A stretch of DNA of 64,000 nt from Balanoglossus misakiensis (taxonomy: Eukaryota > Animalia > Hemichordata). Positions within the stretch are counted from its first letter, which is position 1, and each line of letters opens with the position of its first letter. Positions 1 to 60,454 of this stretch are shown in pieces. The translations under genes were made by a program, and so were the position numbers. Location: positions 5,998,303 to 6,062,302 of the forward strand of contig CM082582.2 of NCBI GenBank assembly GCA_040954595.2. Direction: 5' to 3'. A model generated the notes under the pieces. It did no database searches and had not been told where the DNA came from. It worked only from the letters and a program-made list of their open reading frames with translations.

Positions 1-285
1 TTCTTAGGAAGTCTTGGGAACGCGACTCGAAAGGTGAACACTATAATTTACGACTTCAGCACAAAAGCTCGAAAGAGTGAGAAGGGCGGAGGAAGGAGGG
101 GAGGGGGAGGCCGGGAGGGAGAGAGACTATTGAAAGCATGGACATTTTAAGTGGGTTAAGGAAAATCTACAGAATCAATTCCCACAGTATGACTTGCTGA
201 CAGTATGGAAACTCGCGTGCAGTCGAAATTTTGCCTGCCGAGCGATATTCGCATTTTTGACAAAATGTTTGTCTCCTTCTTTCAG

Positions 286-4874: not shown

Positions 4875-4950
4875 ATGGTGAAAGAAAAGCACCTTGCCAA
4901 GCCTTTGCTTGGGGTGTTGCTCCTCCTGGCGTGTGCGCGAGGAATACAAG
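4875..4950 (+). CDS. Exon 1 of the giant lectin: signal peptide MVKEKHLAKPLLGVLLLLACARGIQ
   Basis: ATG in gtcATGg context, basic n-region, hydrophobic core, and donor AAG|gtaag in phase 1, matching the acceptor at 6350. Confidence 0.8.
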
Positions 4951-7900
4951 GTAAGAATCAACGATGACTTTCACAAACAAAGATCGGTGCCTCTTGTATA
5001 CCACTAGTTTATTTTCCTTTAAACCAGGAATCATTAGTTAATGTGAACCTTCAAGAAACTTTCAGACCATGGCACAGAATTTAAAAAGTCGATTTTTATG
5101 CTTTTGTGGCTAAATATCTTCTTCTATTTTCGAAAATCGAATTACGATATCAACACCGTGATCGCAACCTATCGGCTTACTCGACATTGCTTTATGTTGG
5201 TTTGCTATGCAAAACAAAATCCAAATGCGAATTCGTTGGTCGCGAAATGGATAAAAATTTCACTAAGCCGGTCTTGATTCGAATCGGTGCAGTGTCTTCC
5301 GAGTTCCAATCCCATACGTTTTATTCTTGTATATAGACTTTATCTAGCAAACCAAAAACAATTTTGTATTTCGCAACGCCACATTCCCAATATTACGCGA
5401 ACGCCCCGCACCCACAGATGACATTCTCTCCCTCTCGCTGCGAAGTGCTGTGCTAATGAATATGGTCCGGCATGCGCCAATCGCCACATTGCCCAATTTC
5501 GGGAAGCCACCCAACTTGGAGTCGACCGCAAAAAGTTTGCACCGACTGTTAAATTTAGGGTCCTAGACAATGAGTCGAAGCGACCGCACACGACTGAATC
5601 TTACAGTCTAGATGAAGTCAAGCTTAGAAAAATCGTGTGGTTTACACATGCATGAACAGTCTTCTTACTTTTCGCTAAAACAGGTCGGATGAAAACAATT
5701 CAGTATCTTGCAAAAATATTCGAGAGGTCTCGAATTTATTATGGGATTACTTTCTTTGGAATGTGTGAAGCGTCTGTTTCCCTATTAGAGGGACTACTTT
5801 TCAGTCATAAAAGTTGACTGCTACGGGGGCTACGCTTCCGCCCAGAGAAGAGAGTCTGGGGAAATTGTAGACTCGACAGCCGCATGGGGCTAGAAGGGGA
5901 ATATGTCACAACACTTGATAACAAGTTTAACTTTCATGGTAGTTTAGGTGTCTTCACCCCGTTATCGCTTTTGTACACAACCACCGGAAGCTTGATACTG
6001 CGGCCGGCCACGGCTCTCAGCTGCGAGTGTGGGCCGTAACCTTTGACCCGAGTGAAAGTCTATTGCGCAGTTGAGACCAATATTCATATCAATGCGCGGA
6101 CACTCGTTTTTGATAAACCCACACAAAACTCGATCTCCAACAGTGACAGTGGTGGTAATAATGATGATGATTAGATACTTAATAGAAATAAAAATATATT
6201 TTGACATCGAAAGTGGTAAAATTCGACGTAGGGTCAACGCATATAGTAGTCCTACTCATTAAAATCAAGCGTTTTATCGACAAATCAGCTGGCTTTTTTC
6301 GGCAAATCTTCTCGTTTTTACATTTCACATTTGGATGTTCTCAATTTCAGGACTGCCAGACCCAGTAGCGTTTTGGCCACTTGACGCAGATGAAGGCTTA
6401 CAGGACACATCTGGAAACGGGAACCACGGCACCAACGCCGGTGGCGCCAATCTCATCGCCGATGCCGACGGCACGTTGGCCGGCGCCTATCAGTTCACGA
6501 GCAGCGCCAACTCGTACATCGAGTTCCCCAACAACGGCGCCTACGACACGAGGTACTCGATAACCATGTCGATGTACATATACCCGCAGGGCGTGTTCGG
6601 TCCCACGTTCAACTTCAAGCGCGACGCGTGGGGGGTCCACATGTACAGCGGCAACACCATGCACTTCGTGCGGTTCTGCCAGAGGAACAGCCTGGCGTTC
6701 ACCACGGCGCTGTACGTGAACACCTTGAAGCAGAACGACTGGGTGTTCGTCAGCGCCAGCTACGACCACGACACCGGGATGGCCAAGCTGTGGATCTACG
6801 ACGAAGTTGTGCAGGCCGTGAACATCGGCCGAGTTGAGTTGGCGACGAACTACGAGGCGAGGATGGGAGTCAGAACATACGATGGCAGATATCTGAGGGC
6901 CATGGTTACCTGTATGCAGGTGTACGATAGAGAACTGACACCGTCTGAGATGCGAGAAGCCGAAAGCAAATGTAAAATTGGTCGAAGTATGTATACAGTT
7001 TTATCAGTAGTCTATGTCAATAGGTATTTCACCAATCATATATTGCATCAGTATTGTGTAGTTATCTTTACACGTCTAGAATGTGAAGGAAACTGACCAA
7101 TCGAAGTGAATTATGCATGACAGGGACATTTCAGGCTCTATATCACTATGATCTGAGACGAATATACCTTAAGGTATACTAGTCCCAGCTATGATTCATA
7201 AAACATTAGACAATATTAGATAACAAAATCGCCATTGGGTTATGTCTACTTGCTTGCTTCTGCAAATTGAAATTATTGTACCCCGTACACTGTCCAAGTT
7301 TGTGTAAAGATACATTGGAAAGGGTAATATAGTACATCAGTAAAACGTGCATGTTTGACATAATTATGATTTAGTAAAAGGGAGATAAAAGTAAGATTTT
7401 ATCTAGTATAAACTATAATGCGTGAATCTTTTACTCACCAGTCGAACAACCCTTACCAACTGTGAATTGTAACAACGGGCCGCTGAGAAACCAGATGGTG
7501 CAATTCGACGGGACGGCAAGCAGCTACGTGAAATACTCCAGCGGCGATATCCCTGATCTGGAGAGGTTCAGCGCCTGCTGGTGGGCCCAGACCAGCGCGT
7601 CGGCCAACAACTACCGGACCCACTTCAGCTACATGACGAGCAACGTGAACACCGGCTCCATCTACGTGCGCCGGATCAACAGTCTCATCCTGAACGTCAA
7701 CAACGGCGACGGCGCTGCCACCTCCGTCTCCATCGAGTACGGTCTGTGGCACCACGTCTGCGTCATGTGGTCCAACATCGTCGGGCGCTACCAAGTCTTC
7801 AAGGACGGCGGACTGGTGTACACCACGACCGGTCTGAGAACCTCGCAGACGATCCAAGGCGGCGGACTTCTCGTGCTCGGCCAGCGACTGTCCAGCAACA

Positions 7901-10900
7901 CCGGCAGCTTCTACGGCGCCACCTACTCCTTTCAAGGGAACATGGCGTCCTTCAGCATGTGGAACAAACTTATTGACGAGTCAGATATAGCGGTAAGATG
8001 CAAACGTTAATGATGTATGACAAGCCTCAGGCGGGTCAGAGTTGCAGAGTGGCAACTCACTCAAAACGTCTTCTACTTTTTATATTCAGGTACAGATGTT
8101 TAGGACTAATATGCAAATTACAAAGGGCCTACAAAATGAGGTTAATGTCTTTTGAAATGCTAATTTACAGTCTTAGAAGAATGTAAAATCGAAGTGGCCA
8201 AATACTGGTGTACGATGGGATTATCATTAGCGCGTGTGCATTTGATAAGTCAACAAGCAGTTGCCAATTTGAAGGCCTTCAGAATATGTATTTGAGAAAT
8301 AAACCCAAAATTTATTCTTTGCGACCCCCACAAAACACATCTGCAGTGAAACTTTCGCTGCAATCCAACCTATTTCTATTATTCCGATTAATATAATTAT
8401 ATAATTCTTTATTTAATTATTACAGGCAATGGCATCCAGTGGATGTAACGCAGAGGATTGTGGTAACATTTTGGCTTGGACTAGTTTCCAGACTGATGGC
8501 CTAAACGGTGTTGAGACTGAACGTTCTACACTAGTGTGCGGTATGTTCAAAACTGTCGACACACTTTTTATTTGTTTCTATTTTTAATGTATTGGATTGT
8601 ATATTTTCTTTGGAATCAAAGCAGACGACCATATGATATGCGCAACAAACTTATATGTTACGGTTACCTTTCTGTACTACAAACACACAGGTTTTGTAGA
8701 AAAAAATATGGATTTGAAATACGTGGGTCTTTGACTAAAAAGCAAGGCAGGATATAGTAGGTGCTAAAGATGTGTAGACTTATTCGGTTTAATACATTAA
8801 CTCAACAGAAGACCGCGTGGAAGGATGCGCAGGTGGGGCCTTTCAGGGCAAAATGTTAAACATGGACAACACTGGCAGCGGTTTCAGCTACGCGCAGTCG
8901 TTCCAGTCCATCCCAGACATGAAGCAGTTCACCATGTGCTGGTGGGTTCGCAGCACGGACACCACTACGTCCAAGTACCTGATGACCTACCGCTCGTCCA
9001 ACATCAACACGGGCAGCATCTACGTCTACAACCCCAATAACGTGCAGCTGTACGTCAACAACGGCGCCGCCACCGCCAGCGGCATCGCCGTCAACTACGG
9101 CATCTGGCACCACCTGTGCATGACGTGGGACTCGGCGGACTCCGGCCGATACCACTACTACAAAGACGGCAACATGAGGTACACGTCGTACAATCTGAAG
9201 ACGGGCCAGACTATGCTGGGAGGCGGGACGCTGATGATCGGCCAGTGGCAGGCGTCGGTCGGGAGTGGACTCAGCAAGTCGTATTCCTTCAATCACGACG
9301 TCACCGAGTTCAATATCTGGAGTGAACTTCTGGATGCAGAAAATATTGCAGTAAGAGCATTTGGTTTGCTTGCACAAACATCACATATACGCATCACACT
9401 CTATAAACACCAAAGATTTATGTTAATCAAATGATTGGGTTTACAGTCAAACATCAGCGTGTGGTAGTTTTCAGTTTTTTGTTAGCAATTTTTTTCTTGC
9501 CATACTTTACTTGACACACAAACCCATTAGGCCTACAATACAGAAATTAGGACTACAAAACCAGTAGAAAATTTCGGGATTTTCGTCGGTTTCCAACTTT
9601 TGCATTTGGAAAGTTACTGTATTGCTCATTTACTTATTTTTGTATATTATTCCCCGCAGCAAATGGCTGAGTCTCCGTGTGAGAGCGTCTGCGGAAATGC
9701 TGTGTCCTGGGCCTTCTTCCGGGAGAGTGACATCACAATGTCTGTGACAGCTGAAGATGCCGACATTCAGTGTTGTAAGTGTTGAAGAAAATAAGGGACG
9801 TTTATAGCTGTAACTTTTGGCTTTATTGCCAGTATTTTTGTTCTTTGAATCATACACAATAAATTGTTTGCTCTACTCCAAACAGCATGTCAATGGTACT
9901 TTAACGTAGACGCATTTTGTATCGTTTGGCTATGGTTTAATAATTATTGGATATGCTTTACTCTTGACAACATAGCCGCCGAGGAACCTCAGTGTGATGA
10001 CGGAGCGTACGAAGGCAAGCTCTTCCATTTTGACAGCACATCCGAGTACACCTACGCAACCGTTGACAAAGACTTCAGAGACATCTGGTCGTTCACAAGT
10101 TGTTGGTGGATGCGAACGCAGGACACCAGCAGTACGTACCGCACCATGATGAGCTACTTCGCACTCGGTGACAGTACGAGTCTCGCCAGCATCGCGGTGG
10201 AAAATCCTTACAACATGAGAGTCGGCATCAAGGGAAGGTGGGGCAGCAGCTCCGGAATTGCAGTCAACTACGGGATGTGGCATCACGTGTGTGTCACGTG
10301 GACCTCGGATGGTGGCACGTACCAGATCTACCGAAATGGAGGCCTGGCTTACACACAGACTGGTTACTCGGCAAACAAGATCCTCAGAGGCGGTGGCAAA
10401 TTGGTTCTTGGACAAAAACAGACAACCCTCGGCGGGGGATTCAGTAGAACCTATTCCTACTACGGTGACATGTCAGATTTTAATATGTGGAGCACTGTTT
10501 TGGAATCAGACGTCATCAAGGTACATATAATTGCAAAAATGATTATTCTTGTTATTAGGATATTTTAGTAATTCTGTATACATCATTTAACACTATGAAT
10601 AATTATTTTCAGACAAAACCAATTGATAGCGTTTCTAATTATGAAAGTAAATTGTACACAAATCTGCTGTTAGTTGACCAGACGTATGTTGTATATAGCA
10701 CTGCACATTTGATCAACGCAAGTTTTATATAATTGAGTTGATTTTATCGTGTCCATTATGGCATTGTTTTCAGGGATTTGTTGAAAACCGAGGATGTAGC
10801 AATGGATGTGGTGATCTGGTTTCATGGTACGGCTTCACCAGCAGCAATCTCGAAGAAGTGGAAGTTGAAGATGCAGATGCCGTCTGCGGTAGGTCACAAT

Positions 10901-13900
10901 GTTACTGCATTAATTGTCATAGAACAAGTTTGTGTGGCATGTGAAAGGCAGTCAAGGGCAGCCCTGTGGAGTAACACGCCCTGTACACTAGCTCAGACAA
11001 ATTTTCCCTGTTACACATATGCCACAAGAATGGTTGTAACTCACCACCATATTTGTCTTTTCGATTACCGAGACATTACTTTACAAATACAAGTGCCGCT
11101 AACCATTTCCTTGTGTCTGACACTTGCAGAAGACAGAGCTACCACGTGCGGTGAGGGTACATTGGACGACAAGAAATGGAGTCTGGAAACTTCTTCGTCG
11201 CAGTTCAGCTACGCCGCCGTGAGACAAGAGATCCCCACCATGTCGGCCGTCTCGGTGTGCATGTGGGTGAAGAGTACTGACACGACGACCAGCAAATACC
11301 TGTACACCTACAGAACCTCCAACATCAACACGGGAAGCATCTTCTTGAACAACCCGAACAACCTGCGCTTCTACATCGACAATGCCGCCGGTACGGCGAG
11401 CGGAGTAGCCGTCAACTACGGCATCTGGCACCACATATGTCAGACGTGGACGGCAGAGGGCGGCAAGTACCAGTACTTCAAAGATGGGCGATTGCGGTAC
11501 ACCAGCACCAACCTGCGAACCAACTACGAGATCACCGGTGGTGGCACGCTGATCATTGGACAGTGGCAAGGGTCACAGGGCGGTACCTTCTCCACGGCCT
11601 ACGGTTTCAATGCTGAAATCTCCAAGTTCAACATGTGGAGTGAAGTCTTAGAAGTTGCTGCGATAGAGGTACTAAATATAGTAACTTTTCTTTTAAAGTG
11701 CTTAAAGTTACTATGTTGAACATTCATCTCTGGCTGGGTGTTTGATATAAAGTGTGGCTTCTGCGCATCTCCAGATATCACACTTTTAAATTACGGGATT
11801 CGAACACGGAAGGGCCAAGAACGTTGAGGGAGTTGGTTACTTTCTTGCACAGTTCAGTATTATTCTGGAAATAACTGCTTTGTTTCTTTACACAAAAGTT
11901 TACTGATTATTCCCAACTAACGGATTAAACATCTGTGCCTACAGGGTATGGTTGAAGAACCATGTGGGTATATATGCGGTGATGTCGTATGGTGGTCCTA
12001 CTTCAGGGATGACGATTTGGCCAATATAGACGTTGATGATCATGGTCTACAGTGCGGTAAGTAAAATAACTGAGAAGTTAGTGTTACATTCTAAAGAAAA
12101 ACGTGTGTGCAATTTGTATAACCATGTTGGACACACCAGAGCAAAGTTATGACGTGTATTGTTTCATCTACAGAGGAAGAAGAATTGATCTGCGAAGACG
12201 GGCCATACACCAACAAGACCTGGTCGTTCGACAGTACATCTGAATACACCTACGTCACAGCGCCTACTGAGTTTTTAGACATGTTCTCATTTACGGCCTG
12301 TTGGTGGATGAGAACCAACGATGTGTCCGGACAGGCCCGCTCTATCTTCACCTACTTTGCGCCCGGAGACAACCCTGGAAGTATTCTGGTGCAGACAGCA
12401 AGCAGCCTGAGAGCTTGTATCAAGAATACCTGGGCTTCCCCCTCCGGCGTATCGGTGACCTATGGCGCCTGGCACCACGTGTGCGTCACGTGGACCATGG
12501 ACGGCGGCGTGCAGGAATTCTACAAAGACGGCAGTCGGGTTTTCCAGCAGTCGAACGTGAGGGCCAATCAGATGTTGAGAGGCGGCGGAAAGCTCATCAT
12601 TGGTCAACGACAAGCAAGTGTTGGAGGTGGATTCAACAGGGCTTATTCGTATATTGGCGATTTGTCCGAATTCAACATGTGGAGCGAAGTCTTGATGCAG
12701 TCCAAAATCCAGGTAAGACTGATAGCGTACAAGGCAAAAATGTGTCATATAGATCCAGCGTTTACCTACATAATGATACCTATCTTACAATAAGCTCTGT
12801 AAATATCAGCTCTGACAAACGTCTCCAAATTCGTTGGTAACTATATCTACCGCGATGACCCCTCTAATACAAATCTTCCACTACAGGGTTTTGCGCAGAA
12901 CCGCGGCTGCGAAAATGGCTGTGGAGACTTACTCTCTTGGTCGGAAATAACGTCGTCTGCCCTAACGGAAGTAGAAGTCACCAATGCAGATTCCATGTGT
13001 CGTAAGTTTATTTAATGTGCTCTTCTCTTGCCCAGTAACTACAATGAGCTACAATGAGCCATAAAGATTGTCAAGTAGTGTCAAAGTTAAGGGTTTTCGT
13101 GTCTTTCCTTTGTGTCCATTACTGTAAATACCGTGTATCTTAAGTTAATGAAGTGTGTTGCTTTATGTTTAAGAACCAAGAGTTGACTGCGAAGATGGCG
13201 ACGGTGGGGAATTTGATGACAAAGTGGTTGGAATGGACAACTCTGGTGACTACAGCTATCTGTCGTCCTTCCAAACGATGCCCGACATGACCGCCTTCAC
13301 CATGTGCTGGTGGCTCCGCAGCAGAGACACGACAACGTCCAAGTACCTCATGACCTATCGCTCGTCCAACATCAACACGGGCAGCATCTACGTGTACAAC
13401 CCGAACAACGTGCAGCTGTACGTCAACAACGGCGCGGCGACCGCCAGCGGCTTGGCGGTCAACTATGGCCTGTGGCATCACCTCTGTATGACCTGGGACG
13501 GCGCCGACGTCGGCAGATATCACTATTACAAAGACGGCAACATGAAGTACACGTCCTACAACTTGCGGAACACCCAGACTATTCTCGGGGGAGGCAGTCT
13601 GCTGATTGGCCACTGGCAGGGATCCATTGGCGGCTCCTTGAGCAAGAGTTACTCGTTCAACCACGATTTGACCAAATTTAACATCTGGAATGAAGTCTTT
13701 GACCAAGAAGCAATAATGGTTAGTAGCACTTTGATCCTCTGGGGGGATTCGTGAACAACTCGATCTGTGTAGACACACAGTTTCAGTGAGTTCGATATCA
13801 CAGCAAAACATTGTTATTTGATTTCTATACAGAACATGGCGAATTCCCCGTGCGATGTCTCTTGTGGAAACGCTATTTCTTGGCCATATTTCCGTTCAAG

Positions 13901-16900
13901 CGACATATCTTCAGCTGTTACAGTGAAAGATTCTGACATCCTATGTGGTAAGTGTTTAAACGATTGTTTGAGAATGTATTTATTTATTTACTTGTGGCAA
14001 CTAATTATATCATGTGTGATATACGGTTTTCTTTGAACTGTCGATTACTGTGTATGTCACTGTGTGTAGAATGTTGTGTGTCCAAAAACGAGACTGATTT
14101 GCATATTTCAGCTCCTGAGGAACCCGAATGCGATAATGGCGAATTTGAAGACAAGGTGTGGAAGTTTGACAGCACATCCGAGTACACTTACGTCACTCTC
14201 GAGAAAGAGATCCGCGACATCTGGGAGTTCTCCTCCTGTTGGTGGATGAGGACCAAAGACAGCAGCAGTACAAACCACGCCGTGTGGAGCTACTTCGCCC
14301 AGGGCGACAGCGTGGGCAGCATATTGGTGGAGAACCCGTACAACCTGCGCGTGGCCATCAAGAACAGCTGGGGCAGCAACTCGGGCATCGCCGTCAACTA
14401 CGGCATGTGGCACCACGTGTGCGTCACGTGGACGACGGAAGGCGGCCTCTACAAGATATACAGAGACGGCGGTCTGGCGTACCAGCAAGGCGGGAAATCC
14501 ACCAACACCGAGCTGAGAGGGGGCGGGACCGTGGTGATTGGACAGAGGCAGTCGCAGCTTGGAGGTGGCTTCAGCAGGAGTTATTCCTTCTACGGAGACA
14601 TTTCAGGCTTCCAGTTCTGGAAGAACCTCATCGATGAAAGCGATATCAAGGTAATTCAGATGTCCTAGACTGGTAGTTGTCGAAATGACGACAATTATTA
14701 GAGATTGTTTAACCATAACAAACCCTATAAAACCTTCTGAGTCCCTCCAAATTCAACTCACACAAATGGTGGTAACATTAGTTCTACTCCCTTCATATAT
14801 ATGTGTCATTTTCTCGTAAATCACTTACTGATTGGCCGTAGCAATTGCATGCGAGCTGCTCATTCATTGCGCAACATCCGTTCGCATCCATTGTACGAAT
14901 AGTGAGGGTCCAAATTCTGAAATTTGCTTTCTTGTTATTGGTATTCAGAGCTTTGTCGAGAATCGTGGCTGCGAAAACGGCTGTGGTAATATCCTGTCTT
15001 GGGCTGAGTTCACCAGTGATCATCTCACAGAGGTCGAAGTTGAAGATGCTGAAGCAGTGTGTGGTGAGTATATTCCGTGGTATTTGTGCTTTTCCACAAA
15101 CATTATATGGAGACATATACATATATATCGTGACATTATTGTGACTATGTATGCAATGAGAAAATATACAATATCATAACATTGTGACCGTGTATGCCAA
15201 TAGAACAATAAGCTCTCCTCGTAATATCGGAGATTGCGACTTTTTAGCTGTCCTCATAAATGGGAATGAGATACATGAAGACTTGTGCACATTTTGGAAG
15301 TAACCGGAACATCACGTTTCCTTTCAGAACCACGTGTCACGTCGTGCGGAGATGGCGAGTTCGACGATTCAGCGTGGACGCTGGAGACGTCATCATCTCA
15401 GTTCAGCTACGCCGCCATCAGACAAGAGATCCCCACGATGTCGGCCGTCTCGGTGTGCATGTGGGTGAAGAGTACTGACACAACGACCAGCAAATACCTG
15501 TACACCTACAGAACCTCCAACATCAACACGGGAAGCATCTACCTGTACAACCCGAACAGCCTGCAGTTCTACATCGACAACTCCGCCGGTACGGCCAGTG
15601 GAATAGCGGTCAACTACGGACTGTGGTTCCACGTGTGTCAGACGTGGACGGCGGAGGGCGGCAAGTACCAGTACTTCAAAGATGGGCGATTGCGGTACAC
15701 CAGCACCAACCTGCGAACCAACTACGAGATCGTCGGAGGCGGCACCCTGATAATTGGACAGTGGCAGGGGTCGCAGGGCGGTACCTTCTCCACGGCCTAC
15801 GGTTTCAATGCTGAAATCACCAAGTTCAACATGTGGAGTGAAGTATTGGAAACTTCAGATATCGAGGTGTGTACTTTACCAGACCGTTACCGATAAGGTG
15901 GCGAATAATCTAAGCGTGCCTTACTGTTTATGGGAGATATGTAGCAGTAGACGTATGGCATGAGGACATCTCTTCAACCCCTCTAATTTGCATATTCCAA
16001 CATATGGTCTAAGTCTATGGCTGTCTTCTAATAACCATGTGGTGGCGCTAATTTTTCGGGTGGCCACCCGATTGCAAAATCGTACTGGGCAAGATCCCCA
16101 CTTTCCATTGTAACTGTGGCTATAATTGCATAGGTTGCCGCTTACCTATTATCCACACTGTTCTTTTACTTAGGCTATGGTTGCAGAGCCTTGTGGACAC
16201 ATGTGTGGGAATGTTGTTTGGTGGTCCTACTTCAGATCTGACGATATAGCCAACATTGAAGCTGGTGAACACGGGCTTCAGTGCGGTAAGTAACATCCAA
16301 CGCCCCAAAACGCCTCACAATTTGTACAACGGCCCCTATTTGGACCTCATGCGAGAGAAACCACGGCCATCTTGTATCTAGCTCGTACGCAAGCTCTAGA
16401 GTGCCTTATGGGTAAAAATAATGTTTATCAACAAAGGCTAAATCGTGACGATACCCGCCTTTTAAAGAATTTATATTACAGTCAGTCGAAGTATTATATT
16501 CCTGTTTTCTTAAATATTTGGTATCTCACGTGAAATAACTTCTTTCCGATTACAATTTACAGAGGAAGAAGAGGTGATATGTGAATCGGGAGCATTTACA
16601 AACAAGACGTGGGCGTTCGACAGCACCTCCGAGTTCACCTACGTCACAGCGCCCGCCGAGTTTGTCGACATGATGTCCTTCACTGTCTGCTGGTGGATGC
16701 GATCGAACGACGTCTCCAACCAAGGGCGGGCGTTCTTCAGCTACTTCGCGCCGGGCGACAGCACCGGCAGCATCCTGGTGCAGAACCCGAGCAACCTGCG
16801 GGCCGCCATTCTGAACTCGTGGGCGACGGCGTCGGGCGTGTCGGTGACCTACGGCGTGTGGCACCACGTCTGCGTGACGTGGAGCGCTGACGGCGGCCAG

Positions 16901-34738: not shown

Positions 34739-34769
<31 letters not shown>

Positions 34770-37700: not shown

Positions 37701-40700
37701 CGTTTCGCATCTTCTCTCACAACCAGCCAGTGTTACAGTAACGTAGATGGAATAGTGACCAAAATTTGAGGCACCTTTTGGACACCGTTTCACCAGTTGT
37801 GTTTCTTAGAATTGCATGTACCGTGTGACACATGGCATAAACCACTCGTCTAAATCTGCCCTAAACTACTTTAAAAATGAATCGACTGATACTTACAGTG
37901 CGAGGATAGCAAACAAGAAAATTGTTACAAAGGTACAGGACATGCAGTTTTGTTCATATTATCCATTTCTTGTCACCACCAGCTGCACGGGACAGATGCT
38001 TCGGCGGAACCTTTAAGAGGAGGACCTGGAACATCGACAACTCCGTTGACTGGAGCTACGCTGTCGGGCCGTCGGTCCTGCCCGACATGACCGAGTTCAC
38101 CATCTGCTTCTGGGTAAAGATCCCCCAGACGGAGACCAACTACTGGAGCACCTTCTTCAGCTACTTCGCCCGCGGCGACTGGTTCGGCAGCATCGTGCTG
38201 ATGTACCCGCAGAACGTGCGCATGTACGTGAAGAACTACTGGGGCGTGACGTCCGGCGTCCCGGTGAACGACGGCAGATGGCAGCGGCTGTGCTGGACCT
38301 GGTCTTCGGAAGGAGGAGCCTACAAGTTGTACAACAAGGGCTCCGTCATCTACTCGGGATCGGGATTGGCTGCCGGGCAGACCATCAAAGGGGGCGGCTC
38401 GATGGTCATTGGTCAAAAGCAAAGCACCATCGGGGGAGGCTTCCAAAAAGTGTACTCGCTCAATGCGAGGATCTTGAACTTCAACATGTGGAGCACTGTC
38501 CTCGATAGAGCTACGATTGCAGTATGTATACAATTTAATGTCTTTTTTTAGACATCGGCGTTGTATTACTGCCATAAAATTTTAGAATACATTCCATAGT
38601 GTTTTTGCATAGATAAGCCTATCATACATGTATGTGTATCCAGGTGCTTCCAGAAAGCTATACTGTCATAACGTCAAGCCCGAAAGTACTGTATACATGT
38701 ACTTAATCAGCCCTTTTAAACTGTCAAGTACAGTGTTTTAGCGTCGCCATTTTGTTTAAAGAAAGTGACTTTCTTTTAGTGGTTATCATGCATTTCCGGA
38801 ATCGAATAGCCACAATACTGACTGTGGTGTCTTGTTGCAGTGTTTGTCCGTACGACTCTAACATTTTTAAGTCTAACATTTCGTTTTTTGTTTGTTTATT
38901 TCTTGTCTTGAAGGATGATCGAAATATGTGCAGAGGAGACTGCGGAGACCTGATCTCGTGGCACGAGTTCACATACTACCATGTTGAAGGAATCGGAACA
39001 ACAAAGATTAGATGCAGTAAGTGGAAAATGTATTAACAGTATTGTTTTAGTGTGACAATATATAAAAAGAAAATCAGCACATCGAAATACACTACTTTCC
39101 GCGCATTGCGAGAGATCGCGAGACTTGATTCTTGACTGCTCCATAGACTGCAAATTTTGCTGAAATTTATATAAACATCTTTAAGAGTGAGGCATTATAA
39201 GAAGCATCAACTAGTCATTAATAGGATATCACTACATAGGAAATGGTTGACCTTATCGATTGTTGCCACTGCTAACAAAACTGAACATGTTATTTTACTA
39301 ACAGGAACAGATCCTGACGGAAATATAGACATCGAAGACCAAGATGAGGATGAGGTTACTACCATAGAACGTAAGTATAACCAGCGTCCGTAGAATAATA
39401 TGGCGCATAAATAATCCCTTAACGACCATTTATTTCTTTGTATTCATCTACTAACATATAAGAAAGCATTCGAATTTGTATTTTTTAAATTGCAAACTAC
39501 AGGAACGTAATAATCAGTTATCTGCTGTTTATGAATCCAAACCCACAATCTTCCACAAACGGTATCCACTTGACTTTGGAGAATACAGTTACATTTTATA
39601 ATTTCAAAATTTGTAGCTGGTGTAACGAGTGGACCAGTTACAGAACAACCCGAGGTCACTGAAGCACCAGAGGTCACTGAAGCACCAGAGGTCACAGAAG
39701 CACCAGAGGTCACTGAAGCACCAGAGGTCACAGAAGCACCAGAGGTCACTGAAGCTCCAGAGGTCACTGAAGCACCAGAGGTCACTGAAGCTCCAGAGGT
39801 CACAGAAGCACCAGAGGTCACAGAACAACCTGAGGTCACTGAAGCACCAGTTGTTACAGAAGGCCCGGTTGTCACAACGACAGGTATTAAATGACTGCAT
39901 TACGCCTCATCAAGTATTGCGATTCTTTGCAACAGATATGAAAATTTAACCACAGTTTCCAAGTAAGATCACGAAACGGTCGAAATAACATTATGTTCAT
40001 TTATGTTAATGTTTCTTCCTGTAGACTGTCCAGTTCCCGACAACCTACCAAACGCCGCAGTTGGCAGGACCGCCACACAAAGCTCAAAGAAAGGTGGCGG
40101 CAGAGCTGACAAGGCAGTGGACGGCAATGTTGACAGCGACATGTTGGGAGGTTCATCGTGTTCCCAGACCGAGACTGAAGAAAATCCATGGTGGATGGTT
40201 GATCTGGGAGAACCACTGGATGTCTACAAAGTCACCATCACCAACAGGCTGGATTGCTGCTGTGAGTTAGGAAAATACTATTCCTTTCCCTAACAATCTC
40301 TTTAAGGGGCATGTGTCATGCACGGCTGACCCTATGTTTCACATCAAAGAATTGAGCATGGACGAAATGTCTATCGTTTATATCTACAGAAATGCCCACA
40401 TCGGAAAATATGGGTGTGGCCGAAATCAAATAGTCATGGCGTAAGCAGCAATGACTGGATGACTTGTATTGTTAGATATGCCTGGTAATGTTGTGGACTG
40501 AGTGCTAAGATTCTTGCCGTTCTAGTTTTGACATAACTTTAAATAAATTTCTTTCCTCGCCAACCCCTTGCAGCCGAGAAACTACTCAACGCCGAAGTAC
40601 GCGTAGGAAACAGTGCTAACTTCGAAGAGAACGCTGTCTGTGGTCTAAGAATTTCGGAAGATGTCGCCAACCAGGAGACTATCGAAGTTATCTGCAGCTG

Positions 40701-43700
40701 TGGCGACCCTCTTATCGGACAGTATGTCAGCATTCAGTTGGCTGGTGTCACAGAATCCTTGACTCTGTGCGAGGTCGCTGTTGGAGGATTGCCTTTGCCA
40801 ACATTAGAACCTGCATTCACAACCGAAGGTAAGTTCAAACTGCAAATTGACATTGCTACAATGAATTGAGATTTGCATATGATAATGACGACTATTATTG
40901 TTCATTGATGGCGGACAGCATTTAGATGGTGCATGACTACATTTAGTCGATGCAAACACCCTTCAGCTGCACTGATGAGTAGTACATGTGCACTATTCGT
41001 AATGTCGTGAAAAGGTTAAAGGGTGACGATGGTCTTATGCGCATGTGCCAAACCAGAGACTTTGGTTTCAAAATTGTACACAGTCAATGCCATAAGGCAG
41101 TGTGCTGTATTAACAACAGACAAGATGGCGGCGACCATAGTCTGTGTCGAAGATCGGGAAAATACAGCGAATTAGGTGAAAAGAAGGGACAAAACTACAG
41201 TCTACTTATACGGTGCGCACGAAATGGAAGGAGGCGAAGGCAGTCGACGATTTGAATGCGTCGAATGCAAAATTCGCAGAAAAATTGCATTAGACGTATT
41301 TTTGTACACACGCACATGCGCATAAGACGATCACCGGCCTTGAATTTGCTTGAAGGTCACCTGACACACCTATATTGATCGTTCCCACAGATTGTCCTGT
41401 ACCCGAAGATCTCCCGAACGTTGCCGTTGGAAAGACTGCCACACAGAGTTCGAAGAGAGGCGGATCCAAGGCGAGCAAAGCTGTGGAAGGAAACGCAAAT
41501 AGTGACATGCTTGCAGGAAAGTCCTGTTCACAGACCAAGGCAGAGCTTCGCCCATGGTGGAAGGTGGATCTCGGAGAACCAATGAACGTGTACAAAATTT
41601 CCATCACAAACAGACAGGATTGTTGTGGTATGTGTGACAGTATTAAATATTTTTTTTATGTTTAGATTGTGGACAAATTATTAATTAGGAGATAAGAGTA
41701 TTAATGTTTTTTTTTTATTTTGGTGAAACGATTTCACAATGGGACCATTTAGCTGTTATCCCAGTTTCATACAAAATAACATACCATTCTTCAGCTGTGT
41801 AATAAACTTCATATTTGTGAATTTGACCATTCGACCAACCTTGAGCATCTATTTGCAATTTGTTGACAGTGGCAATTATTGATTATGTATAGTTGCTAAA
41901 ACAATGACGATATGTAAACCGTAGCATACGCTAACTAGGAAATGTTCTCTTGCCGCAGCTGAGAGGCTGATCAGCGCCGAAGTCCGCGTTGGAAACAGCG
42001 AAAACATCGAGGAGAATGCTGTGTGCGGCCACCGAATCTCCGAAGAGCATGCGCACCACGAAACCATTGAGGTTGTGTGTGCCTGCGGGGAGTCACTCGT
42101 CGGCCAGTACGTCAGTATTCAGATCACTAGCAGCGTACACGAGTCGCTCACGTTGTGTGAGGTAAGCATTGGCGGTCTCCCAATGCCAACCGAGGTGCCA
42201 GAAATCACGACCGAAGGTAAATTCTGTTTTGATGTCTAAACGTATACCTTGATTTTAGAGCCCATGGTGTGTATATAAGGAGTACAGTACAGTACAGTAC
42301 AGTACAGTACAGTACATCACGGTTAGGGTACTGTTCAGTACAGGTTTGATACTGTACGGTACGGATTCGATGTGGTACGATCCAGTACGGTTGGTAATGT
42401 ACAAGCAATAGGCTACAGCAGGAAGTTTGCTGCTTTGTAAACTACATGTACCTCTCCTTCCTCCTATCAGCATGCCCAGTGCCAGAGGACCTCCCCAACG
42501 CCGCGGTCGGCATGTCCGCCACGCAGAGTTCCCAGAAGGGTGGTGGCAGAGCCGACAAAGCCGTCGACGGTGACACCAACAGCGACATGTTGGCGGGAAA
42601 ATCCTGTTCGCAGACGACCAGCGAAGAAGAACCCTGGTGGATGGTCGACCTGGGAGAATCGCAGAACATCTACAAAGTGACCATCACCAACCGACAGGAT
42701 TGCTGCGGTGAGTTTCACGTAGGGCCTACACCTAACGCAATGGTGCAATATAGTGCAAAATATTGTGTAAAATTATGTTCTGTAGCACTTTAAGAGAGAA
42801 AGACAGAGAATTGCTGATGAAGGCAGAACGTCATCCATGATAGAAGGTTGATCGTGTGGAGAACCACACGACATATACAAAGTTGCAAGAACTGCCAGTC
42901 GTGTGTATCCGTCATTGCACATTGTTGAACTTGCTATAAGAACCTAGATTCCGCATGATGGGGTAGATTTTCTGACTGAGAATGCTAATGAATGTGTACA
43001 CAAACTTTACGGTAAATTGAGAGAAGGTCTTGGAAGGTTGATAAGCTGCTATCAGTGTAGTGGAACATTCATTCACCAGTCTCAGACAGTAATACTGTAC
43101 TCCCGTCAACTGATGGCTAGTCGCTGGGGCATTTAATGATATCATTAGCAGTTTACCTAACAGGCAATGTTTCTTTCAATAGCGGACGAGCTCCTGAATG
43201 CGGAAGTTCGAGTCGGCGACAGTGAAAACCTCGAAGAAAACGCCGTCTGCGGCGTTAGAATTTCCGAGAGGAATGTCAACAAGGAAACCATCGACGTCAT
43301 CTGTGACTGTGGCAATCCACTCATGGGACGATTTGTCAGCATTCAGTTGGTGGGTGTGACCGGATCATTGACGCTTTGTGAAGTCAGTGTTGGAGGTCTA
43401 CCGCTGCCAACGTTGGCTCCCGAAATAACAACACCTGGTAAGCGCATACATATTGTTCTTATCTTAGACCCTTGGGAGAGGGTCTTTGGTTTCTTATACA
43501 AGTAGATGTGATGTAAATAACGTATCAACTATAAATATACAAACCAAAACACTGTTCACTGACGTTTTATTTTGGAGCTGCTCTATGTGAATATTTGGCA
43601 CTCTGCCATGCGCGATGCCTGTCTTGTCACTTTTTGTCGTCTGCTTCGTGTTTAGGCCTAATGCTCGATCCCGGGCCACCTCGTGTTTACATTCATCCGG

Positions 43701-46700
43701 CGATGCGAGTTTGCTTCAGTTCGCGATTTCTTTTTCTGACGCTGTTTCGTTAAGAAAATGACACTGATGTGCCACAAAATCATTATTTGATATAATAAAA
43801 TAGCAATGACCCCCCGTCACATACGCTTGTGCTATATGACCAAACGTTTGGTATATTTCTGTCAACAGATTGTCCCGTACCCGAAGATCTCCCGAACGTT
43901 GCCGTTGGTAAGACTGCCACACAGAGTTCGAAGAGAGGCGGATCCAAGGCGAGCAAAGCTGTGGAAGGAAACGCAAATAGTGACATGCTTGCAGGAAAGT
44001 CCTGTTCACAGACCAAGGCAGAGCTTCACCCATGGTGGAAGGTGGATCTCGGAGAATCACAGAACGTTTACAAAGTCACCATCACTAACAGACAGGATTG
44101 CTGTGGTAAATGTTTGACCCAAGTTTTTTAACTGTAGTATCCGCTTCGAAAATCTATGCCTTAAACTTTTTTCACGTTTTGCTCAAGGCGACTTTAGATT
44201 ATTTTCTCTTAAAAGCGAGAGTAAAAAATAGGGACCACCGCGTAAAATTTTGTACATGAGAGCCAAATTTGTCTCAAATTGGAAAATAAAAATGGCCGCC
44301 AATCTGTGTGTTAACTCTATGGAGAAGATTTAAAGTTAGTGGTTTTTATGAAACCAAGAAGGTGAACACCCATTTTACATCTTCGCTTTCACGATGACAT
44401 CTCTCATACTAGAATATAAGCAAACATGTTCAATGTTTGAGAGTGTCTGAGGCGCGTAATATCTTAATCTTCTGGGTATTCGTAGTTTTACGTTGCACCA
44501 TTTGGATTGAAGTAAATGTGGTAATTGTACTAAAGTAGTGAGAAATGCCTTATTGACAACACTTTCGTTATTTATTTCTTCCGCCCAGCTGAAAGGCTCC
44601 TTAATGCCGAGGTTCGAGTTGGCGACAGTGAAAACTTTGAAGAGAACGCTGTGTGTGGACACAAAATCACTGAACACCACGTGCATCGCGAGACGATCGA
44701 AGTGACCTGCGCATGCGGGGAACCATTGGCTGGACAGTACGTCAGTATCCAGCTCGTGGGCGGCACTTTTGAAGCTCTTACTCTCTGCGAAGTCGACGTT
44801 GGAGCTCTTCCAATAGAAACCGCTGTTACAACTGAAGGTATTGCTGTTATTTTTTGCAGTAGTTTGAAATTGTTTTGACAAAATATGCATAATGTCCAAA
44901 AGGTTCAAAATTTATACATCTGCAAAATTGTCAATGTTAAGTGTAAAGGTATTTAACCAAAAACCAAAACACGACCAATAGCGTTTTATGCACGCCGTTG
45001 CCGATGGTCACTATGACTACACGAATGTCACCTGTGTTTCAATTGCAGTGTGTGTTGTACCTGAGGGTCTTTCAAATATGGCCGTCGGCAAAGAAGCGAG
45101 TCAGAGCTCCACTAAAGGGAAGCACGCGGCGTCCAGGTCTGTTGATGGCGACAAGGACAGCAACCTCAAAGGACAGTCGTGCAGCAAGACTGAAGAGGAA
45201 GACAGTCCGTGGTGGAAGGTTGACTTGGGTTCCAGCCAGGATGTCTACCAGGTCACAATTACCAACAGACAAGACTGCTGTGGTAAGTTTCCCTGCTTTC
45301 CATGGGGAAAACGGCGAGTCTAGTCCGGCATTGGGTTTTAGCCGGCCGCGCGAGTCTATGGGCCTACGACGTACGCGTTCACTCCACACGCGCTATAATA
45401 TAAATTGGTACAAATTTTGTTGAAATTTAATTTATTTAGAGAATAATTAGGCCCATAGACTTGGGACAAGTCTACAAATTCCCCAATATTGGAGGCTTGT
45501 ATTTCGGGACCCAATGGGCATTTTAATACAATTTCTCAGTACACTGGTCCACCCATAACGTTGCAATAATTCAGTTGTGTTATGTGTGAGGTTGACCTAA
45601 TTATTAACTTTTGGATGCTCCTTTCCAGTCGAATGATTTGTTGATTTTTCATTCTTCGTGTTTTCCTCCTAGCTGACAAGCTCCTGAACGCACAGGTCCG
45701 CGTCGGCGACAGCGAGGACATCGGAGAAAACGCGGCGTGTGGCGTCAAGATCAGCCAACACCACGTTGAGCAGGAAACGATCGAGGTCATCTGCGCATGC
45801 GGAGAAGCCCTCCAGGGAAGATACGTCAGCGTGCAGTTGGCCGGGGAGACGGAATCGCTCACTCTCTGCGAAGTAGAAGTTCTCGGCGGCAGTAGTACAG
45901 TTCCTACTGAGTGGACGACATCTTTCTTCACTGAAATCACGCCGACCCTGGAACCGCAGACCACAACTGAAGAACGTACGTTTGTTTCTGTTGTATTCAG
46001 AAATTGAGCGGCCATTTTCCACATGAGCCAACCCCACAAAACATCATATGAACAAAGAAACAACATGCAAAGACATATTAATCAAAACAGTACAACTTTG
46101 ACAGCTATCTGATCTGTGATTAGAGAAAAACGCACAGCAACTTCAGATCCAGAATAATTAAATGAATCAGTCTGTCACCTACTTTTTACATCAAGCAGAC
46201 TTGACACGACAACCAAAATCTCACATTGCCATTGATGATTTGCAAAGAAATCGTCTGCGTAAACAGTTCATTTATTAGTCAAGTCAAGTGGTCATATATG
46301 CTACACATGTGAAGATCCCGGTGTTAATTTAGTTTTATTTCGTGTTACAGCATGCATTCTGCCGGATGGTTTGGAAAATGTCATCACGTCAGAAATGAGC
46401 GTGGAACAGAGTTCAACCAAGAAGGCAGCCAAAGCTGAAAAGGCCATCGATGGTAATAAAGACAGCAACTTCAGGACGGGAAGATCCTGCAGCATGACCA
46501 ACAAAGAGTTTGAACCTTGGTTCAAATTGGATCTCGGCGAAGAGCGCGACATCTACAAAGTGACCCTCACAAACCGCATGGATTGTTGTAGTAAGTGCAC
46601 AGTTTGTCTGACCTGAGACAATTATTCAGTGTTTAGACTATGTTAGAAAGGTGGCGAGGAGAGGGGAGAGTAGTCATAAAGCTTTCGGGCGGCTACTGTA

Positions 46701-47813
46701 TCATGGATAGCTGAGAATTGAATGTGGCTGGGTACAGTTGTACTCAAGCTTAAGTTCGTTGTTTGTTGGTTGGTGGAAACAAAACAGATGCGTCCAGTGA
46801 CCACTACACGTATTTGCCTATTGTATGTAGAGCCGAATACTTATGGCCTTGACATTTCATTATTTGCAGTGTTCAGACTCAAGAATGCCGAGGTGCGTGT
46901 CGGAAACAGCCCCAACCCCCGGGAAAATCCCCTGTGCGGCGAGAGACCCCTCAAGGGCAGAACCGTCAAGAAGGAAACGGTGGACGTCGTCTGCGGCTGC
47001 GAGGCGCCGGTCACCGGGCGCTACATCAGCGTCCAGCTCTTCAACAGGACGCAGTTCTTGACCATCTGCGAGATCGAAGCCTTCGCGCTGCCCCCGGATG
47101 CGTGCCACCTGCCCGATCTGGTCAAGTTCCCGGCGGTAGAGGCGTCGCAGAGCTCCACCAAGGGCGGCAAGGGCGCGGAGAAGGCCGTCGACGGCGACAG
47201 GAACAGCGACTTCGCCGGTAAATCGTGCACCCTGACTGCGAGCGAGCAGTCTCCGTGGTGGAAGATGGACCTCGGTGAAAGCAAACAGATCTTCAAAGTG
47301 ACGATTACAAACAGAATGGACTGCTGCTGTAAGTATAATCGCCATAGTATCCACATTCTGTCCGTGCCTGGTTCAAGTTCAACCATGAAATATGACGTCA
47401 TCGTGCTTTTCTTCAATACTGATAATCAAACGCTTTTTTTCTTATTTGGACCAATGAAAGTTGTCTCTGTAATAATATGAGTTAATAATACCTAGATTTG
47501 AAGTAAAACTGTCGCAATGCAATGACAGACTTCAATTTTCAGTTTATATTATTGAAACTATAAAATTTGCTATTTCCCCCATTTTTCAGCTTGGAGACTT
47601 GAAAATGCCGAAGTTCGAATCGGAGACAATGCAGATTTCGGTCAGAACGCCCTCTGTGGCGCCCCGCTCGATCGAGACATTGTGAACCAGGAAACCATCG
47701 ACGTGATCTGTGACTGCCAGAACCCCGTCGGTGGTCGATATGTCTCCGTACAACTCCGTGACCTCACTCAAGTACTGACGCTGTGCGAAGTCGAAGTCTT
47801 TGGTGTTGAATAA
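4875..47813 (+). CDS. Giant secreted multi-lectin (about 7,150 aa, 70 coding exons): signal peptide - LamG/ConA-like - 26x pentraxin - acidic/PEVTEA stalk - 7x F-type lectin (fucolectin)
   Basis: Manual GT-AG splicing gives one continuous frame from ATG 4875 to TAA 47811-47813. Exon lengths sum to 21,459 nt, divisible by 3. There is only one signal peptide, no internal stop in the spliced frame and no transmembrane segment. Confidence 0.85.
6351..6986 (+). CDS. Exon 2: LamG-like / concanavalin A-like jelly-roll domain
   Basis: 'PVAFWPLD..LQDTSGNGNHG...YIEFPN...ITMSMYIYP...W.FVSASYD..TG.AKLW...QVYDRELT..E' matches the Laminin_G_3 pattern. Boundaries ttcag| and |gtatgt. Confidence 0.85.
7442..39016 (+). 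CDS. Array of 26 pentraxin modules, each a large exon plus a 103-121 nt exon
   Basis: Large/small exon pairs: 7442-7992/8426-8540; 8809-9350/9660-9774; 9976-10520/10774-10888; 11130-11668/11945-12056; 12174-12712/12887-13001; 13174-13718/13833-13947; 14112-14650/14949-15063; 15328-15866/16174-16285; 16563-17095/17429-17543; 17817-18364/18567-18681; 18927-19471/19796-19910; 20075-20613/20899-21010; 21340-21878/22254-22368; 22637-23175/23422-23536; 24006-24544/24783-24897; 25255-25796/26273-26384; 26658-27196/27571-27682; 27884-28416/28624-28744; 29144-29685/29984-30104; 30331-30866/31236-31347; 31532-32073/32391-32505; 32766-33283/33614-33728; 34128-34663/34848-34959; 35125-35468+35859-36053/36222-36333; 36600-37138/37479-37590; 37983-38521/38914-39016. 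Modules carry FT.CxW, the pentraxin signature WHHxCxTW, 'GGG.L.IGQ.Q...GG.F', 'FN.WS.VL' and 'CG..(V/I).W', with minor variants. Confidence 0.93.
19486..19649. mobile_element. Intronic hairpin MITE
   Basis: Left arm ttttcataagtccagcgccctca...gaacccagagcgaggccaatgg mirrors right arm ccattggcctcgctctgagttc...tgagggcgccagacttattaaaa. Confidence 0.75.
26420..26568. mobile_element. Intronic MITE-like inverted repeat (about 40-bp arms, AT-rich spacer)
   Basis: atatgagtagtatacgtgactatttgggcactcattatata ... tatataatgagtgcccaaatagccacgtatactactaatat. Confidence 0.75.
28833..29010. mobile_element. Intronic MITE-like element (28-bp imperfect inverted termini)
   Basis: gaaaacgaggccagtggatcacagagta ... 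tactctgtgacctactggcctcgttttc. Confidence 0.65.
32583..32701. mobile_element. Short intronic MITE (16-bp perfect inverted termini)
   Basis: gactctctcacagccc ... gggctgtgagagagtc. Confidence 0.65.
34740..34769 (+). repeat. (TTG)n microsatellite
   Basis: About 10 consecutive ttg units in an intron. Confidence 0.9.
35650..35712 (+). repeat. 31-bp tandem duplication inside the extra intron of pentraxin module 24
   Basis: aggattacttacatgggtaggc(c/a)tatactat occurs twice in tandem. Confidence 0.85.
39305..39883 (+). CDS. Stalk exons 39305-39370 (acidic, TDPDGNIDIEDQDEDEVTTIE) and 39617-39883 (PEVTEA repeats)
   Basis: Both are phase 1-1 exons with canonical splice sites, in frame with the pentraxin and F-lectin exons. 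Confidence 0.85.
39649..39846 (+). repeat. Coding minisatellite, 11 x 18 bp (CCAGAGGTCACWGAAGCW = PEVTEA)
   Basis: Tandem units counted directly, with degenerate flanking units PVTEQ and PVVTEG. Confidence 0.95.
40025..47813 (+). CDS. Seven F-type lectin (fucolectin/FTP) domains at the C-terminus of the giant lectin
   Basis: Exons 40025-40261/40574-40828; 41391-41627/41959-42216; 42471-42707/43183-43437; 43869-44105/44589-44837; 45049-45282/45673-45975; 46351-46590/46870-47328/47590-47813. Motifs 'N.AVGK.A.QSS', 'A.KAVDG', 'CS.T..E..PWW.VDLG', 'V.ITNR.DCC..RL.NAEVRVG' and 'G.YVSIQ...LTLCEV.V' define F-type lectin domains. Confidence 0.93.
42281..42315 (+). repeat. (CAGTA)n microsatellite
   Basis: Seven agtac units. 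Confidence 0.9.
42820..42884 (+). pseudogene. Degenerate fragment of an F-type lectin exon inside an intron
   Basis: aaggcagaacgtcatccatgatagaaggttgatcgtgtggagaaccacacgacatatacaaagtt aligns to coding aaggcagagcttcacccatggtggaaggtggatctcggagaa...tacaaagtc, with the WW codons changed to TGA TAG. Confidence 0.65.
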
Positions 47814-48588
47814 CCACGCGTGACTTGGCGGCTGAAATGATCAAAGATATTGAATTTATATTTTAATCTCACTGATTCTTGATAATTTGATTTTATCAAT
47901 CTTCTGATTAGCTTTGCCTTGGTAGAATATTTTTTTTTGACTGACTATGTCAGTACAATATATTTAATCGGAGTCTGAATTAATTGAATGGATTGTTCAA
48001 TTTATATAAAAGATTAGTAAGAGACGTGTGCACAATGTGCAGTCGAACGGAGAAAACAGGTAGACTTCCTTTTGAATTTAATAGTAAGAATATTGTAATC
48101 CCATCTCGCTAAATGATATGCATGTACCTTTTCTTTTTTGGTATCCATTAAATATGGCGCCTTTTGGTGTGCAAACGGGTAAATTGAATACGACTCATTT
48201 TTTCGACAATATTTAAAACACAATGGCACATTCACACACTGGCATTCACGGTGAACTATTTTAAAACGACAATAATTGTCAGACAAAGAAAGAAACTGGT
48301 CTTGGCTTTTCACAAAATGGGGCGGCGGTGCGAATTTTAGCGACAGAACTATTATTGCTGTCTTCTGAGGTGCAATAAAATCAGAGAAAGACTGTACGCC
48401 TATGGTTATAAATACCCATGCATCAGTACTTATAGACACGTTTTATGGCATAAAACATTGGTATTTTTGTCTCTGGCATATCATATGTTTCTTTATATAA
48501 AATATATGCATTCACTGAACGTTTATTCTTTCAAAACACTGTCGCTTCCATTTAGCTGGCTTCCGTCGTTACACTACAGATATAAAAC

Positions 48589-60249: not shown

Positions 60250-60454
60250 GGATCTGGTTCTCTTAGTGGACACGACTATACTCCACGGGCGATAATATGG
60301 TTTTTTAGGGTTAGGGTTAGGAGGGTTAGGGTTAGGGTTAAATTCACCCTCACATTGCCACCCCTAACCCTCCTAACCCTAACCCTAACTCACCCTCATT
60401 GCCATGGTATCGTTGCCATGGGATATAGTCGTGTCCACTAAGAGAACCAGATCC
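60250..60454. mobile_element. 205-bp MITE with 31-bp perfect TIRs, 8-bp TSD (AGCAATCT) and internal inverted TTAGGG/CCCTAA repeats
   Basis: TSD at 60242-60249 and 60455-60462. TIR ggatctggttctcttagtggacacgactata / tatagtcgtgtccactaagagaaccagatcc. (TTAGGG)n at about 60305-60340 and (CCCTAA)n at about 60361-60388. Confidence 0.93.

Follow-up and report, generated by a model that had tools for sequence, protein, structure and literature searches.

A predicted secreted protein of Balanoglossus misakiensis with 26 tandem pentraxin modules and seven F-type lectin domains

Pentraxins are taught as one-domain subunits, which gain avidity by assembling into rings and bind their ligands through calcium. 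A locus of the acorn worm Balanoglossus misakiensis, in which pentraxin exons recur one after another ahead of a series of F-type lectin (FTL) exons, raises the question of whether they all belong to one gene and whether its product still acts as a lectin. The locus is situated in a stretch of 64,000 nucleotides, hereafter the window (contig CM082582.2, positions 5,998,303 to 6,062,302, GenBank assembly GCA_040954595.2). Its structure, together with a collinear single-chain orthologue in Ptychodera flava, indicates that it is a single gene coding for one predicted chain with 26 successive copies of the pentraxin fold, whose calcium site is replaced in like manner in both genera. The orthologue, XP_070535667.1 (isoform X1, 2,925 aa), is an uncharacterised RefSeq annotation model with ten pentraxin and four FTL domains.

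Gene model and domain content

The splice model was derived from six-frame translation, in which long and short open stretches alternate regularly on the + strand, with splice sites set by frame and consensus. The coding sequence of 21,459 nt starts with the ATG at 4875, closes with a TAA whose last base is 47813, and codes for 7,152 aa plus the stop, with no internal stop. All of its 69 introns are of the GT–AG type. The 70 exons in one open frame claimed by the original prediction, as well as the three junctions named there (8540>8809, 39016>39305, and 39883>40025), are recovered in our own model. The introns are 114–1,400 nt long (median 279 nt), the longest being intron 1 and the other 68 measuring 114–562 nt. 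The G+C content is 0.55 in the coding sequence (0.69 at third codon positions) versus 0.38 in the introns.

The chain comprises, in this order, a signal-like N-terminus, a LamG domain, 26 pentraxins, an acidic Thr/Pro stalk, and seven FTL domains, a composition proposed earlier and confirmed by the gene model and by Pfam run on 44 in-frame exon pieces. Each pentraxin module is encoded by a large exon of 518–551 nt (phase 1 to 0) followed by a small one of 103–121 nt (phase 0 to 1). PF00354 scores above its curated cut-off in the large exon of all 26 modules (in module 24 in two pieces), PF13385 is the sole family in exon 2, and PF00754 together with PF22633 is found in the first half of every FTL domain; the match to the FBP32 structure 3cqo has an E value of 5e-35. 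Pfam detected no family in the stalk exon, the six stand-alone exons coding for FTL second halves, and the two small pentraxin exons tested. A weak match of exon 2 to the receptor-binding N domain of clostridial neurotoxins, of 18 bits against a cut-off of 23.8, was rejected as a cross-match within the ConA fold.

HxCx[ST]W, the pentraxin signature, is present in 22 of the 26 modules, and all of them keep both core disulfide cysteines and six cysteines altogether, with ca. 7 residues between the last Cys of a module and the first Cys of the following one. Modules 5, 13, 15, and 17 (window 12174–27682) carry an additional Cys at module position 82. By count this Cys has no partner in modules 5 and 15 or in either module-5-like copy of P. 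flava, whereas it pairs with position 87 in modules 13 and 17. This additional Cys is a possible site of inter-chain cross-linking.

The stalk, 111 aa long and devoid of Cys, consists of 11.3 copies of an 18-bp repeat. Except for FTL6 and FTL7, whose halves share one exon, each FTL domain is encoded by two phase-1 exons, the pattern described for F-type lectins in the available text of PMC12221842. The stop codon follows directly the last strand of the final FTL domain. The highest 19-residue hydropathy of the chain, 1.54, is found at the N-terminus, compared with at most 1.46 elsewhere, so that a scan of the whole chain in 19-residue windows reveals no transmembrane segment, in agreement with the original prediction. 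The assignment of the signal peptide rests on hydropathy and on the orthologues.

The fold was modelled with AlphaFold2 on the orthologous P. flava modules 24–26 (650 aa, an alignment of 55 rows, few of which cover the third module). The model has a mean predicted local distance difference test score of 88.8 and a predicted template modelling (pTM) score of 0.67. Its residues 9–217 superimpose on neuronal pentraxin-1 (6ype) with a Z score of 29.1 and a root-mean-square deviation (rmsd) of 2.0 Å over 202 residues, and comparison of the same model with SAP and CRP gives a Z score of 27. Each two-exon module is therefore predicted to fold as a complete pentraxin domain. A pentraxin domain measures ca. 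4 nm, and an extended array of 26 modules would be ca. 100 nm long.

Binding sites and possible function

CRP binds two calcium ions via Asp60, Asn61, Glu138, Gln139, Asp140, Glu147, and Gln150, and classical pentraxins are defined as cyclic oligomers of 20–30 kDa subunits (PMC6503050, in the text available). The modules described here sit in one predicted 789-kDa chain and thus fall outside that definition, and their calcium ligands are replaced as well. In CRP numbering, set by alignments to neuronal pentraxin-1 and SAP, position 138 is occupied by Arg or Lys in 15 modules, by Trp or Tyr in nine, and by Asn or Ser in two, but by an acidic residue in none; position 140 is acidic in a single module (Glu) and position 147 in none, while position 150 is never Gln and is Tyr in 24 of the 26. 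The P. flava modules likewise have no acidic residue at position 138 (0/11) and mostly Tyr at position 150 (10/11). Basic residues and Trp alternate at position 138 across modules 1–15, and a basic/aromatic pattern is also seen there in the first seven P. flava modules; being a result of duplication, this alternation does not count as independent evidence.

The FTL domains present a similar picture. The fucose-binding motif is H-x24-R-x-D-x4-[RK], deviations from which may mean another specificity or loss of sugar binding, as stated in the available part of PMC5712786. None of the seven FTL domains has the full motif, its His being replaced by Q, Q, Q, Q, K, M, and L, respectively, and this His is also absent from the four FTL domains of the P. 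flava orthologue and from nine further acorn-worm FTL domains found by pattern. The cation motif h2DGx is present, with Asp in five domains and Glu in two.

In 12 of 13 pairs of related modules dN/dS is 0.08–0.23, the remaining pair being saturated, which points to purifying selection on the module copies. Since the changes are common to P. flava and the copies are under such selection, the sites look re-purposed rather than decayed. The view of the protein as a giant agglutinin uniting two lectin classes, put forward in the original prediction, thus finds no support as it stands, as the placeable calcium and phosphocholine ligands of the pentraxins and the fucose His of the FTL domains are replaced in every copy; classical lectin activity is not supported by the sequence at either end of the chain. 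The accompanying suggestion of a cross-linker of mucus or extracellular matrix appears to fit better.

Secretion is suggested by a shortage of N-glycosylation sequons, of which there are seven versus 69.4 ± 7.1 expected (the minimum in 1,000 shuffles being 48); four control motifs, by contrast, show no depletion in the pentraxin array. The P. flava orthologue has five sequons versus 27 expected, and the same shortage is seen in several other tandem pentraxins, although not in three 3-module paralogues. Such depletion would reflect selection on a protein passing through the secretory pathway.

We tentatively favour, with a confidence somewhat short of even, a secreted, calcium-independent multivalent scaffold of the extracellular matrix or mucus, not a classical agglutinin, because the chain is acidic, rich in Cys, and built of closely spaced domains without calcium sites, has a probable O-glycosylated spacer, and ends in a tail common to different heads. 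The pentraxin array would form a string of closely spaced beads, in which the old ligand face, now bearing the conserved Tyr at position 150 and a basic or aromatic residue at position 138, could make many weak contacts with matrix proteins or with glycans, whether anionic or neutral. The stalk would serve as the O-glycosylated spacer, and the His-less FTL tail, common to LamG-headed sister proteins, could anchor or oligomerise the chain. The array itself probably grew by duplication of phase-symmetric exon pairs, independently in Balanoglossus and P. flava. The acorn-worm epidermis is highly secretory (PMC13554239, in the text available).

Neurexin-alpha and the laminin LG arrays, also tandem ConA-like beta-sandwiches in extracellular adhesion proteins, offer a possible working analogy; as the top Foldseek rows for the whole model they show 10–13% identity, a TM-score of ca. 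0.2, and an rmsd above 20 Å, so that only a repeated related fold is shared. Gel-forming mucins have VWD and cysteine-knot polymerisation domains and a long Pro/Thr/Ser region. Pfam found no gel-forming-mucin family in the 44 exon pieces or in the P. flava orthologue, and the stalk is just 111 aa long.

The alternative that survives best, possible though unlikely, is an immune pattern-recognition protein or agglutinin of changed specificity, whose rebuilt pentraxin faces and FTL clefts would recognise glycans of microbes independently of calcium and with no preference for fucose. Both domain families are pattern-recognition folds, the equivalents of Arg79 and Arg86 are largely retained, FTL diversity is expanded in hemichordates (PMC5712786, in the part available), and pentraxin- and fucolectin-like genes mark immune cells of Schizocardium californicum (available text of PMC13554239). 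However, every placeable canonical ligand is lost, and acorn worms have better candidates for this role in other tandem pentraxins, which form a separate clade and keep the Gln-Glu-Gln-Asp loop in every copy. Moreover, modules 1 and 23–26 correspond one-to-one and in order between the genera, which would suit a structural part better than a diversifying receptor.

Several points weigh against the scaffold and the long single chain. The register of the loop around D60 and N61 is ambiguous, and the alignment to SAP pairs Asp-Asn with Asp-Asn in module 5. Arg-x-Asp is retained in all seven FTL domains and the third basic residue in six, so that sugar binding could persist. At a pTM of 0.67 the packing of neighbouring modules in the structural model is uncertain. 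The orthologue has ten modules and no LamG, leaving 16 modules and the LamG exon of Balanoglossus without outside support as parts of one chain, and in the two P. flava models, X1 and X2, the downstream exon is the same but the module spliced to it differs. Finally, the S. californicum genes mentioned above are markers of the immune cell class, though not tied to this gene; SCA10605 (annotated as a neuronal pentraxin-2 with an F5/8 domain), a weak marker of mesoderm cluster 3, is likewise a lead only (both from the available text of PMC13554239).

Beyond the single locus, we consider it conceivable, though doubtful, that acorn worms possess a family of giant modular matrix proteins with a common His-less FTL tail and swappable pentraxin or LamG heads. 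In its pentraxin branch, faces that are alternately basic and aromatic would have taken the place of the calcium site. Expansion of the repeats, perhaps together with skipping of modules, would determine the length of the molecule (3, 10, or 26 modules), giving a single-chain "polypentraxin" ruler or cross-linker instead of a pentamer.

Relatives and growth of the array

A HMMER search with module 14 against 1.84 billion representatives gave 2,112 matches, and the first among the best 150 listed is P. flava XP_070535677.1 (isoform X2, 2,466 aa). Word-based protein searches with module 5 (among proteins of 315–2,000 aa) and module 3 (99–317 aa) returned two matches each, the orthologue not among them. 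All the named close relatives are enteropneust hemichordates (P. flava, Glandiceps talaboti, and Saccoglossus kowalevskii), and no identical protein occurs among those fetched. The largest number of pentraxins is nine among the 144 of the 150 listed matches with domains passing the profile threshold, so that 26 is the longest array seen in this comparison; a protein of 7,436 aa (P0022) has 19 weak stretches.

The domains of XP_070535667.1 align in order to modules 1, 2, 3, 4/8, 5, 6/14, 23, 24, 25, and 26, the stalk, and the FTL tail (53–74% identity), and similar peptides span the module and stalk junctions in both proteins. The P. flava orthologue shares with the window protein the signal-like start, the ordered non-canonical pentraxins, the stalk, and the His-less FTL tail. 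It differs in having ten (X1) or eight (X2) pentraxins instead of 26 and four FTL domains instead of seven, and in lacking the N-terminal LamG and any counterpart of modules 15–22, the best matches of these eight modules reaching 39–51% among the 154 proteins compared. The claim that no protein like this had been described stands for the papers searched, and for the databases it does not, since uncharacterised relatives of the same design occur in three acorn worms. No literature on this protein or on tandem pentraxin arrays was found, subscription journals lying outside the search. FTL architectures in hemichordates were reportedly surveyed by Bishnoi et al. in 2015 (Glycobiology), whose tables may list pentraxin–FTL combinations. 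As collinear relatives exist, the architecture is not unique, and the window gene is, by sequence comparison, the largest member seen of an acorn-worm family, best read as a previously undescribed one with an accordion-like head and a common FTL tail.

More distant relatives fall into several groups. P. flava XP_070546312.1, G. talaboti XP_078000107.1, and S. kowalevskii XP_006821246.1, all uncharacterised, have three pentraxins, a stalk, and one or two FTL domains, also with the calcium loop replaced, and the last module of these three-pentraxin paralogues groups with module 26 (support 99/94); they are, however, far shorter, with 30–43% pentraxin identity to the window protein. The canonical tandem pentraxins S. 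kowalevskii XP_006812501.1 (nine domains), P. flava XP_070546223.1, G. talaboti XP_077982065.1, and Branchiostoma XP_078594462.1 (five each) also have several pentraxin domains in one predicted chain, but none of these domains has lost the Q[ED]QD calcium loop, and no FTL tail was found in the proteins. Four canonical pentraxin domains are also present in a partial SVEP1/polydom-like model of 3,881 aa from the bivalve Sinanodonta woodiana (P0008). CRP, SAP, PTX3, and the neuronal pentraxins share the fold (Z scores of 25–29, rmsd ca. 2 Å), but have one domain per chain, form non-covalent oligomers, and possess the calcium ligands. The Xenopus pentraxin fusion protein PXN1 also joins FTL and pentraxin in one chain, although in opposite order and proportion, with five FTL domains and one pentraxin, the FTL-like region being N-terminal (PMC12221842, in the text available).

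The history of the modules was followed in a midpoint-rooted tree of 65 domains, 26 from the window and 39 from 13 relatives, leaving out those modules of X2 that X1 also has and, in four canonical arrays, the later modules. Modules 1, 23, 24, 25, and 26 pair one-to-one with P. flava (support 99–100/95–100), and the arrays keeping the calcium loop form a separate clade (100/99). Window modules 2/6/10/14 (95/93), 4/8/12 (92/95), 3/11, and 5/13 cluster apart from their P. flava counterparts, so that the four-module block seems to have expanded or been homogenised after the lineages split, and the two module-5-like copies of P. flava form a pair of their own, which points to independent duplication there. 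Within the block the identities are 89% for modules 3 and 11 and for 5 and 13, 81–84% among 4, 8, and 12, and 67–74% among 2, 6, 10, and 14. The first exons of FTL2 (41391–41627) and FTL4 (43869–44105) are 95% identical in DNA, with only 40% identity in their 30-nt flanks, and the large exons of modules 3/11 and 5/13 show the same exon-limited identity; gene conversion between these exons is possible.

The LamG exon is 78% identical to the repeats of a P. flava protein of LamG ×3–stalk–FTL ×5 composition with a related FTL tail, and a sister family is therefore its likely source, by exon shuffling. In the P. flava relative P0158 the leader runs directly into the same LamG start. Weak evidence against a fusion of LamG and a pentraxin array elsewhere is that none of 15 matches to the LamG exon has PF00354 among its listed domains, though our own mapping found one pentraxin-like stretch (30%) in a G-protein-coupled-receptor-type protein. 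The sister family, LamG ×n–FTL ×m, is represented in three acorn worms (P0158, P0160, P0161, P0165, and P0172), the G. talaboti protein being LamG ×3–FTL, and the data suggest that the LamG–FTL genes of P. flava and G. talaboti may be linked to pentraxin–FTL genes.

How many modules reach the product is a separate matter, compatible with either function, scaffold or immune. A full 26-module product of one transcript is predicted, and skipping of modules is possible; that the 26-module form is rare, with phase-symmetric modules skipped to give shorter isoforms like the ten-module P. flava model, is a somewhat less likely alternative than the immune one. It draws on the fact that every module starts and ends in phase 1, and on P. 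flava, where one and the same module is preceded by a module-3-like unit in one of the isoforms X1 and X2 and by a module-5-like unit in the other, and where the chain runs from a module-14-like unit directly to module 23. Nevertheless, the open frame, the six core cysteines, and the GT–AG sites are preserved in all 26 modules. X2 has 2,254 C-terminal residues in common with X1 but a different module ahead of them; it has no signal peptide at its start, and near-identical repeats (94% identical) may have made it an incomplete model. The difference between X1 and X2 may thus reflect either module skipping or a partial model.

It is very improbable that several adjacent pentraxin and FTL genes merely seem to share one frame. 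The annotation of G. talaboti does contain a separate 234-aa "neuronal pentraxin-2-like" fragment, corresponding to the end of module 1 and module 2, but this fragment has no signal peptide and ends by read-through past the donor position. The gaps between modules in the window are just 114–469 nt, none of the modules possesses a start, leader, or stop of its own, and the P. flava orthologue is one chain. No convincing signal-peptide exon was found in the 69 introns, two of which hold weak ATG–hydrophobic–donor candidates (hydrophobicity 2.0 and 2.3 versus 3.2 for exon 1), and intronic AATAAA occurs at chance level (14 versus 16.8 expected). A module number raised by duplicated haplotypes, an assembly artefact to which large exons 91–95% identical in DNA over ca. 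500 nt might point, can practically be dismissed, since the 22 best self-blastn matches are all confined to exons and end at exon ends, dS between the closest modules is 0.37–0.54, and there is no N in the window.

If expressed in full, the protein would be among the larger secreted ones (ca. 790 kDa) and a test case for pentraxin and F-type folds without their canonical ligands. As annotation fragments such genes, the G. talaboti 234-aa piece being an example, counts of acorn-worm immune lectins may include pieces of structural proteins.

Feature coordinates and neighbouring genes

Table 1. Features of the pentraxin–FTL gene, in positions of the window
Feature	Position	Strand	Remarks
Whole gene	4875..47813	+	70 exons, 7,152 aa, ~789 kDa, pI 4.7, 224 Cys
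Exon 1, predicted signal peptide	4875..4950	+	25 codons, phase-1 donor
Exon 2, LamG3/ConA-like domain	6351..6986	+	Single phase 1-1 exon, PF13385
Pentraxin module 1	7442..8540	+	Phases 1>0 (large exon) and 0>1 (small exon); P. flava orthologue one-to-one
Pentraxin modules 2-14	8809..23536	+	Four-module higher-order repeat
Pentraxin modules 15-22	24006..33728	+	Older, diverged block
Pentraxin modules 23-26	34128..39016	+	One-to-one with P. flava (57-74%)
Extra phase-0 intron, module 24	35469-35858	+	
Acidic Glu/Thr/Pro stalk	39305..39883	+	Two exons, 39305-39370 and 39617-39883
Seven FTL domains	40025..47813	+	13 exons, all phase 1
Candidate poly(A) signal, first AATAAA past the stop	48374..48379	+	561 nt downstream of the stop

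Upstream of the gene, positions 261–1900 (+) comprise the end of an O-methyltransferase gene, ASMT-like by appearance, with PF00891 in three exon pieces and its start before the window. Downstream, a coding-like open stretch of 120 aa (48902–49261, +) has no Pfam match, and one or more multi-exon genes lie on the − strand at 53487–59080, where PAW exons (PF04721) form two pairs and are accompanied by ankyrin-like exons and an open stretch of 355 aa rich in Lys, Arg, and Ser. A short interstitial TTAGGG array of 6.5 copies lies at 60305–60340. Further on, a motif at 61271–61411 which we take to be THAP-like, a YqaJ-like exonuclease match at 62492–62980 (+), and related open stretches on the − strand are found, and the region 61271–63842 is probably a degenerate transposon.

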